Sequence record: KM606994 | DNA: 64,000 bases | Reading direction: 5' to 3' (one strand) | DNA from: Escherichia phage RB3 | Shown here: in pieces, positions 12,084 to 61,331 of the stretch | How the letters are laid out: the number at the start of each line of letters is the position of its first letter | Numbering within the stretch: the first letter of the stretch is position 1 | The notes under the pieces: model-generated | The model's database searches: none | What the model was told of the DNA's origin: nothing | What the model saw: the letters and a program-made list of their open reading frames with translations, nothing else | Position numbers and translations under genes: made by a program

Positions 12084-12686
12084 TTATAGATTAAATCCTT
12101 CAAAATCAAGAGTATAGATAGTGTATGTTGAATACTTTTTATACTCATATCTATCTGCAATTCTAAATACACTTCCAGCTGGTATCATTACTTCTTGTTC
12201 ATCTGAAACTAATTCCATATTACGATAACGATGGCTATCCGGAAACTTAAAGTTTGGATTGTATTCTTTACAGCGTAGAGCTTTTATAGCATACTCCTGG
12301 AAATTGAATACCATAGGAGCTTTGAATTCAAAAATAACTTGTGTGTTATACTCTAAACCGGAAGCAAAATGTAGAGCTATATTTTTATCATATGAAGCTG
12401 ATACTACTTTATCAAATGTAATAATATCAATTCCTTGATTTAACACTTGCTTAGTCTCGACTGGAACACCTCTCCAAAGAGGTTTATCGTTTGGAACCAA
12501 ACGAGATTTGATTATTTCATTTAACCAAGTATGGTCATCTGGCTTATTAGTAATACAATGAATTAAAAGTTCAATTTCAGATAAATTAAACCCTTCAGAA
12601 AGTAATTCTTCACGAATAGAAGCACGCACCGATGCATCCATTGATTTTATTTTAAAATCTTTTAGTTGCATTACTGAGTATTTCAT
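12084..12686 (-). CDS. modA: ADP-ribosyltransferase ModA (200 aa)
   Basis: R-S-E ART motifs (LWRG, SAS, EQEVMIP); length as T4 ModA. Confidence 0.8.
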   Translation of the reverse strand: MKYSVMQLKDFKIKSMDASVRASIREELLSEGFNLSEIELLIHCITNKPDDHTWLNEIIKSRLVPNDKPLWRGVPVETKQVLNQGIDIITFDKVVSASYDKNIALHFASGLEYNTQVIFEFKAPMVFNFQEYAIKALRCKEYNPNFKFPDSHRYRNMELVSDEQEVMIPAGSVFRIADRYEYKKYSTYTIYTLDFEGFNL

Positions 12687-17644: not shown

Positions 17645-17809
17645 TTACTCTTCTTTTTCTTTAGATTCCTCTTTCTTCTTTTTAGGAATCTGTTCAGGAC
17701 CTTTATTTACTACAGCGCCTGACGTTGTTCCAGTAGAGATATTTTCAGGATTACCACCTGAATCTCCAGCGACCATATCTTCTTTGATAAATTCTTTATA
17801 TGTTTTCAT
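17645..17809 (-). CDS. small protein (54 aa) with N-terminus resembling the internal-protein capsid targeting sequence
   Basis: Hand-translated MKTYKEFIKEDMVAGDSGGNPENISTGTTSGAVVNKGPEQIPKKKKEESKEKEE; not in ORF track. Confidence 0.35.
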   Translation of the reverse strand: MKTYKEFIKEDMVAGDSGGNPENISTGTTSGAVVNKGPEQIPKKKKEESKEKEE

Positions 17810-17821
17810 ATTAGCCTCTAA

Positions 17822-18115
17822 TTATTCACCTACCACTTCAGCGATGATATTTTTATTATTGAAGTTTTTATCACAATACAGAACGTAATTATACTGCATT
17901 ACACCACCAGACTTAAGCTGTTTTTGTACTTCAGCTTTCATTTCAGGGCGATCACGCTCAACGATATTCATAATATCTGCTTCAATCTGAGTTTCAACCT
18001 CAGTCTGATCTGCAGTCATAGACCATTCGCACAAATCTTTATCATAACCTGCCATAGCAGGCTGAGCAGCACAAGAAGCTAAAGCAAAAATTGCAGCAAA
18101 AACAAATTTTTTCAT
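17822..18115 (-). CDS. sp: secreted periplasmic protein, spackle-like (97 aa)
   Basis: Signal peptide MKKFVFAAIFALASCAAQPAMA; size and position as T4 sp (61.3). Confidence 0.55.
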   Translation of the reverse strand: MKKFVFAAIFALASCAAQPAMAGYDKDLCEWSMTADQTEVETQIEADIMNIVERDRPEMKAEVQKQLKSGGVMQYNYVLYCDKNFNNKNIIAEVVGE

Positions 18116-18734: not shown

Positions 18735-18926
18735 TTACCCTCGCCAATCAGATTCAAAAACTTTTTTATCATTAACAAATGCTTTAACTAAAGCTTTATT
18801 AACTTCAGCAAGTTGTGAAGTGACCCATAGAATTTGATCTTTATCAGACACATCCATAGTGATTTCTTTGGTAAACATATTACCATTTTCAAACCAGCCA
18901 ATAAAAACAATCTTTGCTAATTCCAT
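18735..18926 (-). CDS. dmd: Dmd-like antitoxin (63 aa)
   Basis: Size and position immediately downstream of gene 41 as T4 dmd (61.5). Confidence 0.55.
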   Translation of the reverse strand: MELAKIVFIGWFENGNMFTKEITMDVSDKDQILWVTSQLAEVNKALVKAFVNDKKVFESDWRG

Positions 18927-22018: not shown

Positions 22019-22861
22019 TTAATCAACTGCTATTGGATGAATAGCATTAAACTTATGAAATGCTTCTGATTTTTCTTTACGTGAAACACACATGCGAAGA
22101 ACCTTTAACGGCTCGTCTTCTTCACCCAACGATTTTCGTTTTTCAATATTCGATGTTTTCCAACGAGCTTGCTCTGGAAACTCTCTATTGATTTGCTCAA
22201 GCGCTCTATTATGTTTAGAATTACTACGAATTGAACTGCACCCGCCAGGAGCTTGTGCTTTTCCAGATACAACCAGATATTTGAACAAGGCCAAATGCGG
22301 ATAACCTTGATTAATTAAATTGAGAAATGCATACATATCTTCACATAAATCAATTTTTCCATACCCAATTTGTTCTGTTGTAAGTTTTCCGAGGTCATAC
22401 CATGTATTCGTGAATCCATATGAATTTTCACGATAATTACCCCAAGATGAAGTAATTTTAAAAATTGGTAGACGAGCATGACCATGATAATACCCGCAAT
22501 CCATGGCATCCTCAACATATTGAATCAATTCATAGAACTGTTCACGAGTTAATTGATTAATTTTATCTACACAACGACGATCATCTCTTTTTCGCATTGA
22601 ACTCATACGAATAGTAGTATCATCGTCAATCATCCAGATTCGTTGACCTGCATACATATCAGTAATTGCTTTACGAGTTCCAGCAATTCCGTTTACATCA
22701 TCAGGAATAGTTATAATTTTAGCTCTAGACCCATAGGCATCATAATAAGCTTTTTCTTCGTGTTCACGTACTACAATATGGGGTTCATAATCAGTCGGAA
22801 ACATATCAAGGGCAGAAACTGCCCCGACACGCTGATAACTTGGAATTACGAATTGAATCAT
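22019..22861 (-). CDS. GT-A-type glycosyltransferase at the beta-gt locus (280 aa from first ATG)
   Basis: DxD motif IWMIDDDTTI; sits between uvsX and 42 where T4 has beta-gt but is shorter and of a different fold. Confidence 0.5.
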   Translation of the reverse strand: MIQFVIPSYQRVGAVSALDMFPTDYEPHIVVREHEEKAYYDAYGSRAKIITIPDDVNGIAGTRKAITDMYAGQRIWMIDDDTTIRMSSMRKRDDRRCVDKINQLTREQFYELIQYVEDAMDCGYYHGHARLPIFKITSSWGNYRENSYGFTNTWYDLGKLTTEQIGYGKIDLCEDMYAFLNLINQGYPHLALFKYLVVSGKAQAPGGCSSIRSNSKHNRALEQINREFPEQARWKTSNIEKRKSLGEEDEPLKVLRMCVSRKEKSEAFHKFNAIHPIAVD

Positions 22862-23598
22862 TTCCACTCACCGTTATAATCTTTTTTCACAATATGAGTT
22901 TCGCCAGTATTCCACCAATGATCAACCAAGTAAAAATGACGAGAATATACATGAAGACTTCCAACATTCCATATAATAGAACCTGCTTTATACTGACGAG
23001 TTGAATCGCCTGCATTCAAATCAGATACTAATTTATCTAATACGTATTTTTGCCATGCATAATCATTACGGAATCCGAAGACCACGTCATTTGAGCGCAT
23101 GCTTACTACTGCATTGACTTTCTTATCACGAATCAGGTACTGTACTGTATTAGTACACATGAAATCTGACATGCCATCTTTATTGTAGTCAAATTGCATG
23201 GATGGACGAGTATAAATCATGATACCACGTCGAGAATCAGGATTTTGACCAAGTTCAGCTAAACACATATCATACTGGGCATAGTTATCTTCTGACCAAA
23301 TAGCCCAGCCATAATTCGAGTTAATTTCGCCTTTAGAAGATGCTACCTGCTGCCAAATCTTTGGTGTTTCACCTGGAATATCTTTAACAAACAGACTTTG
23401 AGACTTGTACCATTCAAGTTCACGCTGAATGTATTCATCATTAAGAGCGCCAAAAATAAAGGGTTCATCTGCTACAAATGATGCGCCAATAATTTCAATA
23501 GTTTTAACGCCAGTTTTATCAACTACGAAATCTTTTTCCTTTAATGCAGTTCCCAAATAAAAACGGATTTCTTCAACTGTCATAGAGTCATTAATCAT
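22858..23598 (-). CDS. 42: dCMP hydroxymethylase gp42 (246 aa)
   Basis: Thymidylate-synthase-like fold; length and sequence as T4 gp42. Confidence 0.9.
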   Translation of the reverse strand: MINDSMTVEEIRFYLGTALKEKDFVVDKTGVKTIEIIGASFVADEPFIFGALNDEYIQRELEWYKSQSLFVKDIPGETPKIWQQVASSKGEINSNYGWAIWSEDNYAQYDMCLAELGQNPDSRRGIMIYTRPSMQFDYNKDGMSDFMCTNTVQYLIRDKKVNAVVSMRSNDVVFGFRNDYAWQKYVLDKLVSDLNAGDSTRQYKAGSIIWNVGSLHVYSRHFYLVDHWWNTGETHIVKKDYNGEWK

Positions 23599-56735: not shown

Positions 56736-56948
56736 TCATTTTTGTCCTGTATTTACTTTATGCCGATGCACGGCCTTAACTTTATCAAGGTATTTTTCAA
56801 AATTTCGCAATCTAGTATAGTCTGCCGGAGATTGGTTGAGTGATACTTCTCGACGCAAAGCTGAAATGATATTTCCAACTTCCCTACGAATTTCATCTAA
56901 TTGAAGCACAGTAAGATTGCGAAGTTGCTTTTCAGTTAATTGTAGCAT
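56736..56948 (-). CDS. hypothetical protein (70 aa; rI.1 position)
   Basis: ORF track; late promoter upstream. Confidence 0.45.
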
Positions 56949-56973
56949 ATATACCCCTTTAGTTAGATAAACC

Positions 56974-56981
56974 TATTTATA
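56974..56981 (-). promoter_or_regulatory. late promoter TATAAATA upstream of the rI.1/rI genes
   Basis: Plus strand tatttata about 25 nt upstream of ORF start. Confidence 0.45.
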
Positions 56982-56990
56982 ACTTTTGCA

Positions 56991-57572
56991 CTAACCGAGC
57001 TTTTTAGTTAATTCATTCCAATGTTTTCTACACAAAGAAACATAAATTTCATCACCAATACAGATTTGATTACCTTCTTTAACTGGTGTTCCATCTTCCA
57101 TTAATCGAGCTGTCATAATCGCTTTTTTACCGCAATGACAAACTGCCTTTAGTTCAATAAGTTTATCTGCAATCGCTAAAAGTTCTTTAGAACCTTCAAA
57201 TAATTTTCCAGCGAAATCAGTCCTTAATCCATAAGCCATAACAGGAACATTATATGTATCAACAATTCGACTTAATTGATGCACCTGTTCAGTTTTTAAA
57301 AATTGGGCTTCATCTACAAATACGCAATGAATATCTTTTTGTGCTTCAGCCCATTTATAGAACTCGAAAATATCCATATCATCTGTAATAATATTCGCTT
57401 CCTGTTTAATTCCAATGCGAGAAACAACTTCACAGACAGAATCGCGAGTATCAATAGCGGGTTTAAGAACTAATACACTCATTCCACGTTCTTTATAATT
57501 ATGTGCGGCAGTCAAAAGAGAAGCAGATTTTCCAGCATTCATTGCTGCATAAGTAAAAATTAAACTCGCCAT
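56991..57572 (-). CDS. tk: thymidine kinase (193 aa)
   Basis: P-loop AAMNAGKS, zinc motif CHCGKK; length as T4 Tk. Confidence 0.92.
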   Translation of the reverse strand: MASLIFTYAAMNAGKSASLLTAAHNYKERGMSVLVLKPAIDTRDSVCEVVSRIGIKQEANIITDDMDIFEFYKWAEAQKDIHCVFVDEAQFLKTEQVHQLSRIVDTYNVPVMAYGLRTDFAGKLFEGSKELLAIADKLIELKAVCHCGKKAIMTARLMEDGTPVKEGNQICIGDEIYVSLCRKHWNELTKKLG

Positions 57573-57581
57573 ATCACCTTC

Positions 57582-57767
57582 TTAAAGCGTATTCACATAA
57601 GCTATTAATTCATTTTCTTTCTTATCAAACCGATCAGCAAATTCTTCCTGCTGTTCGGGAGATAACGGGCCGTATTCATCATAAAAGGTGTTTGCTTCTG
57701 TATGCTCATCTAGAAGTTCATGGATAAGCTCAAATAATTTATCTTTTTGTTCTTTACTCAGACTCAT
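57582..57767 (-). CDS. hypothetical acidic protein (61 aa)
   Basis: ORF track. Confidence 0.4.
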   Translation of the reverse strand: MSLSKEQKDKLFELIHELLDEHTEANTFYDEYGPLSPEQQEEFADRFDKKENELIAYVNTL

Positions 57768-57933
57768 ATATTAATTTCCAGGAGTTTTAAAATAATTCGC
57801 TTTTGCTTAAATATTTCCATAGTTAAATGACCAGTATCTTTTTGACCGATTCCAATGGCAAAACCTTTATTAACAGCGAGTTCAATTAAATTATCAAGCT
57901 CACGTAACACTTCGTATTGTAACTCAAAACTAT

Positions 57934-58146
57934 TCATTTTGGTTTACCTTCTTTAACGAAATCTGGATAAGGATAAAATCCCGAATAAAATCCTTCACCT
58001 TTATGATTGATACATCCTTTATTAGAACAATAGCACCAATAATCGAAATCACAAGCCATTTCATCGTTGCATAAAGCAAAAACAACCGGCCACTTACACT
58101 TTTCACAATGGGCATTTTTAAGAATACTAGTTTGGCTCATAACCAT
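57934..58146 (-). CDS. Cys-rich small protein (70 aa)
   Basis: Eight Cys in CxxC-like arrangement. Confidence 0.4.
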   Translation of the reverse strand: MVMSQTSILKNAHCEKCKWPVVFALCNDEMACDFDYWCYCSNKGCINHKGEGFYSGFYPYPDFVKEGKPK

Positions 58147-58349
58147 GTCACCTTTAAGCAGTATTCTTCTACATGCTGTTTACGACCTTTCTTATCAATA
58201 AAGGTATATTCAACGAATGTTCCAATGTAGTCTTTATCTACATCATGTAGGCTATTAATTGGGCATTTAGTACGGCAAATGCGTTCCCATTGACGAATAA
58301 TTTCTGCTTTGTTTTTAGGATCAAACGGATGCGGGTAATGCACTTTCAT
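58137..58349 (-). CDS. hypothetical protein (70 aa)
   Basis: ORF track. Confidence 0.4.
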   Translation of the reverse strand: MKVHYPHPFDPKNKAEIIRQWERICRTKCPINSLHDVDKDYIGTFVEYTFIDKKGRKQHVEEYCLKVTWL

Positions 58350-58800
58350 AATCCACCACTATTAAATCAATATCAGGAGTAAACATGTCGATTAATTTAG
58401 AAACCTTATCCCAATCACCGCCAGCAATACCACAACCTATGCGTGGAATGTAAATTACTGGTTTAAACAAAAGGGTTTCTGCCTGTAGATTTAATTCTAT
58501 CATGCAGTTTACTAAAGCACCATAATCAAGATTAGGACCTGGTTCGTATTGCGTATACAAGTTATAACATATGCCAAAACCATTAGGTTTATGTTTAAAA
58601 ACAATAGACATATCACCGAGTTTTTCACGCGAACCATATTCAGTAGTAGTTTTATCTATTTCTAAAATTTTAGGATAGGCCCTTGCTAATTGACCCGCTA
58701 CACCTGAACCCATAGTATGAAAACAGTTACACCCGTGCGCAATAATATTACCTTCAAGAAAGAGGGCGACAATATCGCCCTTGATATATTTTACAATCAT
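58321..58800 (-). CDS. macro-domain-like protein (159 aa), putative ADP-ribose binding/hydrolase
   Basis: Motif IIAHGCNCFHTMGSGVAGQLA resembles the macro-domain N-x-x-GGGV signature; assignment from motif only. Confidence 0.45.
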   Translation of the reverse strand: MIVKYIKGDIVALFLEGNIIAHGCNCFHTMGSGVAGQLARAYPKILEIDKTTTEYGSREKLGDMSIVFKHKPNGFGICYNLYTQYEPGPNLDYGALVNCMIELNLQAETLLFKPVIYIPRIGCGIAGGDWDKVSKLIDMFTPDIDLIVVDYESALPASV

Positions 58801-59144
58801 CTAGTACTCAATCCTCGATTATAAGAATCTACCAAACGGTCAACCATTGAATGACAAGCGGCTTTATCTTTCTCCTCCGCAACTGAACATTCTAAGGTAT
58901 TCCACTTTTTAGCATATCGTTTTAATAATGTATCGTTTTTGTATCTGCTTGATTTATCTCTTTCTCCGTCTTTATATGCATATATTAATTTCTGCGCAAA
59001 TTCAGCTTGGCATGCTTTATTTTTCCCACAATAATCTGCCGCAGTGCGATTTACATATTCTCTAATTTCAGTATATGATGTATCTGCTGACGCAGAAGCA
59101 GAAAATGAAATTAATCCTATACATAAAACCAAAATTTTAGTCAT
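58797..59144 (-). CDS. secreted protein with signal peptide (115 aa)
   Basis: N-terminal MTKILVLCIGLISFSASASA; four Cys in mature part. Confidence 0.45.
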   Translation of the reverse strand: MTKILVLCIGLISFSASASADTSYTEIREYVNRTAADYCGKNKACQAEFAQKLIYAYKDGERDKSSRYKNDTLLKRYAKKWNTLECSVAEEKDKAACHSMVDRLVDSYNRGLSTR

Positions 59145-59682
59145 TTACTATTTCCAAAAGTTTATTATTTTTAAGATAATTAGCCTTTTCTAGGACTTCA
59201 GAAGCATATTTAGAACCAGCTTTAACATTCCATCCCGAATTATAAGAGGATATTGCTTTTCTTATATCTCCCTTGTGTATATTTAACCAATAAGAAAGTT
59301 CAATGTACGCCCAGGAAGCTGAATTGGATCGTTTATTCAACATTCTTTTTATTTCAGCATCGGTCATATTATAACCAAGTTCCTTAACTCTCGCTCGCAT
59401 AGTAGGCAAATAATTTTGGAACATTCCGTAGGCGTGATGCTTTGGTTTAGATTTTAAATTAACTCCGCCAGAGCTTTCTTGCCATAAAATAGCAGCCATT
59501 ATATGACCTAATCCGCTCTTGTGGATATTTTTGTGTGTTTTATATTTTCCATCCTTAGAAAATTGTTCCCCGAATTGATACGCGTAACGCATGTTATCGA
59601 GTTGGACATTACTGAAAGTATGCTCGGAGCTATGTGCCATCATTGAAATGGCCAATAGACCAGCGAGTAGTGCTTTTCTCAT
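59137..59682 (-). CDS. secreted lytic transglycosylase-like protein (181 aa)
   Basis: Signal peptide MRKALLAGLLAISMMAHS; SLT-like motifs ILWQESSGG, AYGMFQ, YNSG. Confidence 0.5.
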   Translation of the reverse strand: MRKALLAGLLAISMMAHSSEHTFSNVQLDNMRYAYQFGEQFSKDGKYKTHKNIHKSGLGHIMAAILWQESSGGVNLKSKPKHHAYGMFQNYLPTMRARVKELGYNMTDAEIKRMLNKRSNSASWAYIELSYWLNIHKGDIRKAISSYNSGWNVKAGSKYASEVLEKANYLKNNKLLEIVND

Positions 59683-59689
59683 GCTTACC

Positions 59690-60151
59690 TCATTGAGTTT
59701 TAATTACTGCTTTAGAAGCCTTTCCTGGTAAACGACGACTGTTAATAATTGCCATCCTGCATTGAAGCGACGGGTCTTTGAACTTCGCATTAGGTTTACA
59801 AACTGTAAATCCAAGCCAAAGATTTCCATCTGTGATTTCTAAACGTCCAGGACGATATTCAACCCCATCAATAAAATCCTCGTCAATGTCAGGACGCGGA
59901 GGCATACTCAGGGATTCATTAACTTCTAAAACATGGTCTTTTATTTTATGGAATAATTCAAAAACATATGTCTCATCAATCTCCCGTTGAATTGCGCGAT
60001 CAAGAAGATGTTGAGAATATTTTAGATGAAACGATGAGACTCCTGCTGCTTTTGATGCCTCACGAATCTCATTGTTAATTTGACGAAACTCCGACTCAAA
60101 GTGACGACGAAGCTTATTTCGACGGATAAAAACTTCTGTATTGATAGTCAT
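59690..60151 (-). CDS. regB: endoribonuclease RegB (153 aa)
   Basis: Length as T4 RegB; GAGGAG RBS; early promoter upstream. Confidence 0.75.
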   Translation of the reverse strand: MTINTEVFIRRNKLRRHFESEFRQINNEIREASKAAGVSSFHLKYSQHLLDRAIQREIDETYVFELFHKIKDHVLEVNESLSMPPRPDIDEDFIDGVEYRPGRLEITDGNLWLGFTVCKPNAKFKDPSLQCRMAIINSRRLPGKASKAVIKTQ

Positions 60152-60178
60152 GTTATTCTCCTCTTAACTGATAGAAAA

Positions 60179-60208
60179 ATTATACCACAGTCAAGAGGAA
60201 AAGTAAAC
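60179..60208 (-). promoter_or_regulatory. early promoter (GTTTAC, 18 nt, TGGTATAAT) upstream of regB
   Basis: Plus strand attata-N18-gtaaac. Confidence 0.6.
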
Positions 60209-60210
60209 AG

Positions 60211-60531
60211 TTATTCTTTAAATCTGATCAATTTATTCATAGACTTTGAAACTTCTGCACGAACCTCATGTAGATTTTTGAGCTGTTCAAGACGCTGCGC
60301 ATAGTAAGCAATTTCATCTTCTTCGAGACAGTCCTGTGAATCTTCTTTAAGATAACGCGCATAGTCCTGGAAAGCATTACGAATTACTTCTTGGAAGTCA
60401 TCAAGACTTTGAATTTTCTTAGGAGCAGCAGATACACGACGAGGGGCAGTATAATACTCATAACCAAACCCTGCGCTTAATTGAGCCATTAGTATTTTTC
60501 CTCTGGTTGGAACACAGCACGGCAAGCCCAC
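60211..60531 (-). CDS. hypothetical protein (106 aa)
   Basis: ORF track. Confidence 0.4.
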
Positions 60532-60791
60532 ATACTGGCTTCTTTGAGTTTCGTTTTAGCAATAGTTAACTGATCGAGGCTTTCAGCATAATTCTTCGCG
60601 AGTTCATCATCTTCACAGCTATCGAATGCTTCCCAGAATTCATCGTATAAAGCATCAAAGATAAGTCCTAAACGAACTTCAGCGTCTTTGATAGCATTCA
60701 CTTTACCGATTTTCTCTTCAGTATGCGGCTTATAACCTTTAATGTCTTCAATCATATTTGACTTCCTCACCAGTACATAAATCATATTCAA
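60489..60791 (-). CDS. hypothetical protein (100 aa)
   Basis: ORF track; start may be internal. Confidence 0.4.
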
Positions 60792-60969
60792 CTAAACGAA
60801 TAGGTTCATGAATGCCATATCCTTGAACAGAAATTTCTGTTGTAGGATAAATTCCATCAATATCACCCATATTCCAGGCTTCATTAAATTGCTGTTCGCC
60901 TGAATTACTAAACCACTCGGCGAAAGCATTTAGCACATCTTTAGAACCTTCAATAATTATCTTTGCCAT
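60748..60969 (-). CDS. hypothetical protein (73 aa)
   Basis: ORF track. Confidence 0.4.
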   Translation of the reverse strand: MAKIIIEGSKDVLNAFAEWFSNSGEQQFNEAWNMGDIDGIYPTTEISVQGYGIHEPIRLVEYDLCTGEEVKYD

Positions 60970-61331
60970 TACAGACTCTCAGTAAAGGTACGAGCGATAA
61001 CGTCGCGCTGCTGTTCCGGAGTCAGAGAGTTAAAGCGAACTGCATAACCTGATACACGGATGGTCAGCTGCGGATATTTTTCCGGATGCTTAACTGCATC
61101 TTCCAGAGTTTCGCGACGCAGAACGTTAACGTTCAGGTGTTGACCACCTTCAATTTTAACTGTAGGTTGTGTTTCAATTTCAATTTCACGGGCATGCAAA
61201 CCGTAGAAAATTTCTGGGTCTACAAAAGAGTCCTCTTTAAAAGTTTTAGAGACAATAATTCGTGCTTGAATACCATCTTCAAAATAAATAGTACCTTTGT
61301 GTGTGCCTTCAAGAATTTGATATGCTTTCAT
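60969..61331 (-). CDS. grcA: autonomous glycyl radical cofactor GrcA/YfiD-like protein (120 aa)
   Basis: C-terminal ~58 aa ([59 protein letters not shown]) carry the RVSGY glycyl-radical motif and match remembered E. coli GrcA almost exactly. Confidence 0.75.

Follow-up and report, generated by a model that had tools for sequence, protein, structure and literature searches.

According to one survey, macro domains occur in 41% of myoviruses (PMC9503650). The closest described relative of the gene considered here is tk.4 of phage T4. When transposon mutants of T4 were screened on a host carrying DarTG2, only tk.4 came out as a significant hit, and T4 with a clean knockout of the gene became sensitive to DarTG2; in the cited passages of this November 2025 preprint, T4 needs tk.4 only if its host carries DarTG2 (bioRxiv 10.1101/2025.11.20.689424). 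Its authors noted the similarity of Tk.4 to the Mtb DarG macrodomain and, because deletion of the gene sensitises T4 to DarTG2, renamed it adfM, for anti-DarT factor Macrodomain. Removal of ADP-ribose from DNA by Tk.4 is worded there as one that 'seems likely', so that the mechanism in T4 is an inferred one and the T4 evidence is genetic (10.1101/2025.11.20.689424). T2 and T4 without the NADAR protein AdfN (gp30.3) are reported to be still DarTG2-resistant (PMC11825919).

PhiKZ gp104 (22518-23006 of the PhiKZ record, L084), independently named AdfM, is likewise a single phage macrodomain directed against DarTG2, and biochemical work reports that it strips DarT2-made ADP-ribose from a TNTC oligonucleotide (Cell Rep 2026, PMC13309987). 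In DarG, K80 is the counterpart of TARG1 K84, its replacement by Ala inactivates the protein, and N22 is functionally important (PMC5179494). SCO6735 of Streptomyces coelicolor, a cellular protein with a RecA-dependent promoter, removes ADP-ribose linked to thymidine on DNA and gives protection from DarT. Its Q85 corresponds to DarG K80 and TARG1 K84, and Q85A abolishes activity; Asn27, the counterpart of DarG N22, is the proposed holder of Gln85, and G128E impairs activity (PMC9411070).

A macrodomain gene between vs and tk.3

The window is the whole stretch of DNA that was analysed, 64,000 nucleotides of Escherichia phage RB3 (record KM606994). Its tk.4 region is 100% identical to phages RB5, RB6, RB7, RB9 and RB10, and 97-99% identical to many other Tequatroviruses. 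The gene and its immediate neighbours are as follows.

58321..58800, minus strand: tk.4/adfM orthologue, single-domain macrodomain protein of 159 aa with an ATG start (ORF, Pfam, PHROG, AF2, Foldseek, synteny)
58797-59144, minus strand: vs orthologue
58797..58800, minus strand: ATGA overlap between the tk.4 start codon and the vs stop codon, read directly from the sequence
58137-58349, minus strand: tk.3 orthologue, 93% identical to T4 Tk.3
58321..58349, minus strand: 29-nt overlap between the 3' end of tk.4 and the start of the tk.3 orthologue

The minus-strand order is regB, vs.1, vs, the 58321-58800 gene, the tk.3 orthologue, three small ORFs and tk. In the T4 reference record, tk.4 likewise lies between vs and tk.3 and codes for a single macro domain of the same length class (155 aa). 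The two proteins align end to end without gaps at 58% identity over 155 aa (E=5e-70), with H22, N25, Q84, G122, G124 and W130 in common; the window protein differs in a four-residue C-terminal extension and in its loop 2, which is GCGIAGG as against GAGIGKG in T4. Among the neighbours, Vs and Vs.1 are 100%, RegB and Tk 99%, and Tk.3 93% identical to the T4 proteins. By alignment and gene order, the 58321-58800 gene is the orthologue of T4 tk.4 (adfM).

The product is a genuine macrodomain, a fold of enzymes that take off ADP-ribose, with a predicted three-layer alpha/beta structure. Pfam Macro (PF01661, gathering cut-off 22 bits) matches residues 22-136 with 34.4 bits (E=2.4e-8; model positions 2-117 of 118), and PHROG 335 matches with 2.5e-71. 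A phmmer search of PDB sequences with the 159-aa protein alone found solved macrodomains, the best at 8e-11, including BT1257 (2afc/2fg1, about 1e-10), yeast Poa1p, SCO6735, the Mtb DarG macrodomain (5m3i) and TARG1; with a family profile of 45 homologues, the same macrodomains were found at 1e-20 through 1e-11. The AlphaFold2 model, built from an alignment of 44 homologues that left out the T4 sequence, has a mean pLDDT of 94.4 and a pTM of 0.89. Foldseek returned 168 PDB matches to this model with E<=0.001, and the best 50 of these, each at probability 1.00, consist of macrodomains and of designed serine hydrolases with a macrodomain as their scaffold. TARG1, Poa1p, BT1257, the Taq and Mtb DarG macrodomains and SCO6735 are matched at this probability, followed by viral macrodomains.

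The initial annotation had placed a 159-aa ORF at 58321-58800, which is present exactly so on the minus strand, and had proposed a macro-domain-like protein from an N-terminal motif. The motif is real (residues 19-39, IIAHGCNCFHTMGSGVAGQLA), and this motif-based call was sound, even though a short motif is no longer its sole basis: Pfam, the profile search, AF2 and Foldseek all agree on a macro fold. The identity of the gene with T4 tk.4 had escaped that annotation. A dN/dS of 0.09 rules out a chance motif in a spurious ORF, and so does the tblastn result, with homologues in 2861 of the 50,697 phage records. Within the RB5-type allele group dN/dS is 0.09-0.10, that is, the gene is under purifying selection and is therefore maintained and functional.

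In T4, transcription of the regB-vs.1-vs-tk.4-tk.3 gene string precedes replication. A GAGGA sequence is located 11 nt 5' of the tk.4 ATG. The promoter and terminator scan of 56900-61000 gave 17 sites as against 15.2 in shuffled sequence, which is no excess, and no promoter is therefore claimed for tk.4. In the GDIVALF codons at the 5' end of tk.4 (58763-58781), near the 5' edge of the zone where identity to T4 begins to drop, the minus strand has an 8-bp inverted repeat without mismatches, AGGGCGAT-ATT-GTCGCCCT; the terminator scan found it on both strands, and it may be a chance occurrence. Vs (MTKILVLCIGLISFSASASA..., 58797-59144) and Vs.1 (MRKALLAGLLAISMMAHS..., 59137-59682) both begin with hydrophobic, signal-peptide-like segments, and the annotation of Vs as a modifier of the cytoplasmic valyl-tRNA synthetase is odd beside such an export-like signal. 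In the HIDEN-SEQ work, vs is reported to show the strongest depletion of all T4 genes in minimal medium (bioRxiv 10.1101/2025.11.20.689424).

Active site and placement among macrodomains

The elements of the putative active site are distributed over three segments.

58684..58746, minus strand: loop-1 region, residues 19-39, with H22, G23, N25, C26, G33 and A35
58549..58563, minus strand: NLYTQ, residues 80-84, with Gln84 in the column of the catalytic Lys (TARG1 K84, DarG K80)
58411..58446, minus strand: loop 2, the diphosphate-binding loop, PRIGCGIAGGDW, residues 119-130, with P119, G122, G124 and W130 invariant

The residues G8, H22, G23, N25, C26, G33, A35, L61, G62, N80, Y82, Q84, P119, G122, G124 and W130 are invariant in the 44 homologues, and the two glycine-rich loops (N25-x5-G31-S-G33-V and G122-C-G124-I-A-G-G) are invariant or nearly so. 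In a MAFFT alignment that included TARG1, Taq and Mtb DarG, PhiKZ gp104 and BT1257, N25 falls opposite N22 of Taq DarG, the second N of the VNTVN segment, and NLYTQ84 shares its columns with LITK84 of TARG1, FPTK80 of DarG, FPTK of PhiKZ and NMIGQ of BT1257. BT1257, in particular, has a Gln in the catalytic column as the window protein does. The profile-to-TARG1 alignment places Q84 opposite the catalytic K84 and A126 opposite D125, so that the Lys84/Asp125 dyad of TARG1 is represented by Gln84 and Ala126. There is no lysine at all between residues 72 and 112 of the window protein. An hhalign alignment with PhiKZ gp104 gave a register two residues off near Gln84, where its columns have the lowest confidence; the MAFFT/HMMER register is preferred because it is the same across TARG1, both DarGs and BT1257 and keeps the conserved Thr.

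In loop 2, PRIGCGIAGGDW aligns directly to PRIGCGLAGGTW of SCO6735 (5e3b) and to PRIGCGLAGGKW of BT1257, and G124 corresponds to SCO6735 G128 if a 20-residue tag is assumed in chain 5e3b. When fragments were used as PDB queries, the middle fragment gave nothing relevant for the Gln84 region of SCO6735 (5e3b), and the C-terminal fragment gave loop 2 only. Since these queries missed the Gln region, the equivalence of Gln84 with SCO6735 Gln85 is drawn through the TARG1 and DarG alignments and the literature. With Q84 in the Lys column and a loop 2 like that of SCO6735, the Tk.4 family is, on alignment, of the SCO6735 type, with a predicted lysine-free constellation of Q84, N25 and G124. The likeness to SCO6735 extends to the loop-1 Asn, to a near-identical loop 2 (PRIGCGLAGG-W) and to a stand-alone gene with no adjoining toxin partner; the profile match has E=1e-16 and the Foldseek probability is 1.00, even though overall identity is low (25%).

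DarG has the same predicted fold (Taq 5m31/5m3e and Mtb 5m3i, TM about 0.73-0.77), and T4 genetics suggests it as a functional analogue of Tk.4. Its distinctive features, however, are missing from the window protein. The catalytic Lys80 is replaced by Gln84, the C-terminal DarT-binding domain is absent (159 aa as against models of about 338 aa), and the gene neighbours are vs and tk.3, whereas DarG is encoded beside darT. The DarG equivalog NF048014 of NCBIfam scores 28 bits as against its cut-off of 250, over positions 2-138 of 338. For the RB5-type and T4 alleles, the DarG models match in their macro part only, with 27.9 and 36 bits for PADLOC and 28 and 30 bits for NCBIfam. The window protein would work like the DarG macrodomain, by analogy, while standing outside the DarG family. 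Its accurate placement, as far as the alignments go, is as a stand-alone macrodomain like Poa1p, BT1257 and SCO6735.

PhiKZ gp104 aligns with the window protein at an hhalign probability of 96.4%. It differs in having kept the FPTK lysine, where the window protein has the Gln, and in scoring 90.7 bits to Mtb DarG (5m3i); it is therefore a DarG-type protein. Judged from their sequences, the name AdfM now covers two macrodomain lineages, a DarG-like one in PhiKZ gp104 and a Gln-type one in T4 Tk.4 and the window protein. An invariant Gln where DarG and TARG1 have the catalytic Lys, alongside a Lys-type PhiKZ AdfM, appears to be a new point; the split between the two types was not met with in the literature passages cited here. 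The isoelectric point, as a proxy for DNA binding, is uninformative, the biochemically active PhiKZ protein being equally acidic.

The bacterial relatives of Tk.4 were surveyed for their gene organisation. At 80 bacterial loci (L003-L082), proteins with up to 41% identity are encoded by ORFs that stand alone; their lengths run from 146 to 327 aa, with most at about 150-190 aa. When their 149 flanking ORFs were scanned against Pfam, the commonest neighbour families were housekeeping ones, e.g. semialdehyde dehydrogenase, tRNA synthetases and transporters, and DarT was not among the 25 commonest families. DarT neighbours, which would point to an origin as an 'escaped DarG', were thus looked for and not found among these 25 families. 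That the bacterial relatives are stand-alone and not linked to DarT appears to be new. NADAR-domain proteins are encoded by two of the 149 flanking ORFs (best E=2.3e-39). Such a pairing of macro and NADAR hydrolases, with no toxin next to them, could be a double 'orphan antitoxin'.

In the PDB, sequence and structure searches both gave their best matches to BT1257 of Bacteroides thetaiotaomicron (2fg1/2afc), human TARG1/OARD1 and yeast Poa1p, the last of which is a phosphatase with a soluble substrate. The match to Poa1p (6lfu, E=2e-9) lies mainly in residues 3-79, the N-terminal half; it has a profile E-value of 1.5e-15, and Poa1p is among the top Foldseek matches (6lfr, E=2.9e-9). These matches bring in the possibility that the protein processes soluble ADP-ribose derivatives, as an ADP-ribose-1''-phosphate phosphatase like Poa1p or as an O-acetyl-ADP-ribose deacetylase, and, instead of repairing DNA, clears what RNA repair or NAD-consuming host defences leave behind. 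Database names fit such a role. The T4 record describes tk.4 as 'phosphatase; Tk.4; contains A1pp phosphatase motif', the name in RefSeq (e.g. NC_054912, NC_000866) and of PHROG 335 is 'phosphatase', and some sources call homologues O-acetyl-ADP-ribose deacetylase; in other records the names are 'macro domain-containing protein', 'Macro_Poa1p_like' or 'Appr-1-p processing protein', and most GenBank records have 'hypothetical protein'. These names, however, come from domain names and not from assays. A1pp is the macro domain under an earlier name, and the domain call was therefore already present in the T4 reference annotation. The 'phosphatase' label was taken over from it, and is probably misleading because the T4 orthologue has a DarTG2 phenotype. 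DarTG2 sensitivity is the sole known phenotype of an orthologue, and to our knowledge the T4 RNA repair enzymes, Pnk and Rnl, do not generate ADP-ribose-1''-phosphate. A review does propose that phage macro and NADAR domains may favour soluble derivatives (PMC9503650), and such activities and de-ADP-ribosylation of DNA are not mutually exclusive. As the main role of the protein, processing of soluble derivatives seems unlikely.

A probable counter-defence role

The present analysis establishes the fold, the orthology, the conserved residues and the purifying selection. The function that we favour, as a fairly probable one, is DarTG2-type counter-defence like that of the T4 orthologue, by Gln-based removal of ADP-ribose from DNA. 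From T4 genetics and SCO6735 biochemistry, we infer that the RB5-type allele acts like the T4 allele and that the removal is enzymatic. A free-standing macrodomain would be made early, from the tightly packed regB-vs.1-vs-tk.4-tk.3 string. The host toxin DarT2 puts ADP-ribose on thymidines of single-stranded phage DNA and so blocks replication. The two glycine-rich loops of the phage macrodomain would bind this ADP-ribose, and hydrolysis of the thymidine-ribose bond would leave clean DNA. The chemistry would resemble that of Streptomyces SCO6735 rather than that of DarG, with Gln84, held by Asn25, taking the place of the catalytic lysine and positioning the substrate and a water molecule. Such a protein would be an 'orphan antitoxin' with no need for the toxin-binding domain of DarG.

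Several features stand against this reading. Between the window protein and the T4 protein that was tested, 42% of the positions differ, with a concentration in the part of the protein to which the catalytic Gln loop and loop 2 belong. Its closest solved relatives by sequence are BT1257 and the phosphatase Poa1p, not DarG; it lies below the DarG equivalog cut-off and has neither the catalytic Lys nor the DarT-binding domain; and its relatives in bacteria do not adjoin DarT.

The window also encodes two ADP-ribosyltransferases, as the initial annotation had pointed out; both match phrog_832, 'RNA polymerase ADP-ribosylase' (E=2e-33 for ModA and 8e-42 for ModB).

12084-12686, minus strand: ModA, 200 aa
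12683-13306, minus strand: ModB, 207 aa

Their presence in the same window is the basis for a different role, in which the macrodomain erases or reads the marks that the phage itself makes on host proteins, whether by Alt/ModA/ModB ADP-ribosylation or by ModB RNAylation, and so tunes or times reprogramming. Alt, ModA and ModB modify arginine. The substrates of the class formed by TARG1, DarG, SCO6735 and Poa1p are ester-linked ADP-ribose on proteins, thymidine-linked ADP-ribose on DNA and ADP-ribose-1''-phosphate, and we know of no cleavage of arginine-linked ADP-ribose by this class. Moreover, tk.4 is located 46 kb from modA/modB, and nothing links it to such marks. Arginine-specific macrodomains do exist, such as Legionella MavL (PMC10951314). 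In the cited passages on the HIDEN-SEQ screens of T4 with several defence systems, tk.4 is nevertheless reported for DarTG2 only (10.1101/2025.11.20.689424). Overall, a role on the phage's own marks is very improbable.

Of the functions put forward in the initial annotation, reversal or reading of the ModA/ModB marks is thus unsupported and is at odds with the structural class of the protein. Its other proposal, that the protein counters host ADP-ribosylating defence toxins, has the backing of the screen and the knockout of the T4 orthologue, in which deletion had the predicted outcome, sensitivity to a DarTG-like defence (10.1101/2025.11.20.689424). The finding is correct but already known: the T4 reference annotation names the domain, and the part that the gene plays in counter-defence was described in 2025.

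Another anti-DarT gene was looked for in the same window. AdfA (gp61.2) is an anti-DarT1 factor of some T-even phages. A tblastn search of the window with T4 gp61.2 gave no match, and no 61.2 lies between the 61.1 orthologue (17684-17809) and sp (17825-18115), which are direct neighbours. T2 is also reported to be without adfA (PMC11825919).

The divergent allele and its exchange

Although the flanks of tk.4 are nearly the same as in T4, much of the gene itself is not. The segment concerned, and those of a neighbouring patch, are the following.

58330..58690, minus strand: mosaic patch divergent from T4, the C-terminal two thirds of tk.4 (30-nt identity windows)
57582-57767, minus strand: small ORF, 61 aa
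57764-57937, minus strand: small ORF, 57 aa
57934-58146, minus strand: small ORF, 70 aa

Compared with T4 in 30-nt sliding windows, vs and the initial ~20 nt of tk.4 are 97-100% identical. Nucleotide identity drops to 73-97% in the ~120 nt that follow and to 30-73% inside the patch (~58690 to 58330), and is back at 90-100% in tk.3. Dhakavirus IME281 has the opposite pattern. It is 77-93% identical to the window over tk.4, mostly 87-93% within the patch, but only about 40-70% over the vs and tk.3 flanks. One GenBank record describes the tk.4 gene as 'similar to phage JS98'. Since the patch is near to Dhakavirus and the flanks are near to T4, the comparison indicates a cassette exchange between Tequatrovirus and Dhakavirus-like lineages, and on these identity profiles one exchange junction is within the conserved 5' part of tk.4. 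A divergent allele amid flanks that are 93-100% identical, together with the cassette swap, appears to be a new point. In the phage collection, the RB5-type allele is present in 317 records at >=90% identity, and the T4-type allele in 224 records at >=90% plus 159 at 80-90%. BASEL phage AdolfPortmann carries the RB5-type allele at 100% identity.

Two sharply different alleles with identical flanks in Tequatrovirus relatives could also reflect co-evolution with toxin surfaces, if the protein neutralised DarT2 or another ADP-ribosyltransferase toxin mainly by binding and inhibition, with hydrolysis secondary. In vitro, the dead Q85A form of SCO6735 is reported to inhibit DarT more than dead DarG K80A or TARG1 K84A (PMC9411070). 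The K80A DarG macrodomain alone, on the other hand, is reported not to inhibit DarT (PMC5179494). The catalytic-site residues are all invariant and dN/dS is 0.09, which speaks for a conserved enzyme, and the difference between the alleles arises at least partly from the Dhakavirus-like cassette exchange and not from diversifying selection in situ. Neutralisation mainly by binding has little probability.

A second replaced patch (57572-58136) adjoins that of tk.4, between tk and the tk.3 orthologue. T4 has tk.1 and tk.2 there, while the window has the three small ORFs listed above, of which only the 57582-57767 ORF is similar to a T4 gene, at 54% to Tk.2 and, by blastn, 69% over 181 nt. Elsewhere in the window, the dmd orthologue (18738-18926) is only 67% identical to T4 Dmd, in contrast to 95-99% for the neighbouring genes 61, 61.1, sp and 61.4. 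Dmd is an antitoxin mimic against RnlA/LsoA, and dmd may be another anti-defence gene with a divergent allele on a T4-identical backbone.

The labels 'hypothetical protein' and 'phosphatase' in hundreds of T4-like genomes could be replaced by 'macrodomain, AdfM-like anti-DarT2 factor'. The remaining interest lies in the cassette-exchanged allele and in a Gln-type active site that is apart from both DarG and the PhiKZ namesake. Sequenced phages carry the RB5-type allele about as often as the tested T4 allele, although the two differ by 42%. As a tentative and rather doubtful extension, adfM would exist in T4-like phages as two or more cassettes, deeply diverged and horizontally swapped, with a T4 type and an RB5/JS98 type among them, which could differ in the toxins or the ADP-ribose-base linkages that they neutralise; exchange of the cassettes would then retune counter-defence, with the whole Tk.4 lineage being lysine-free and Gln-based.
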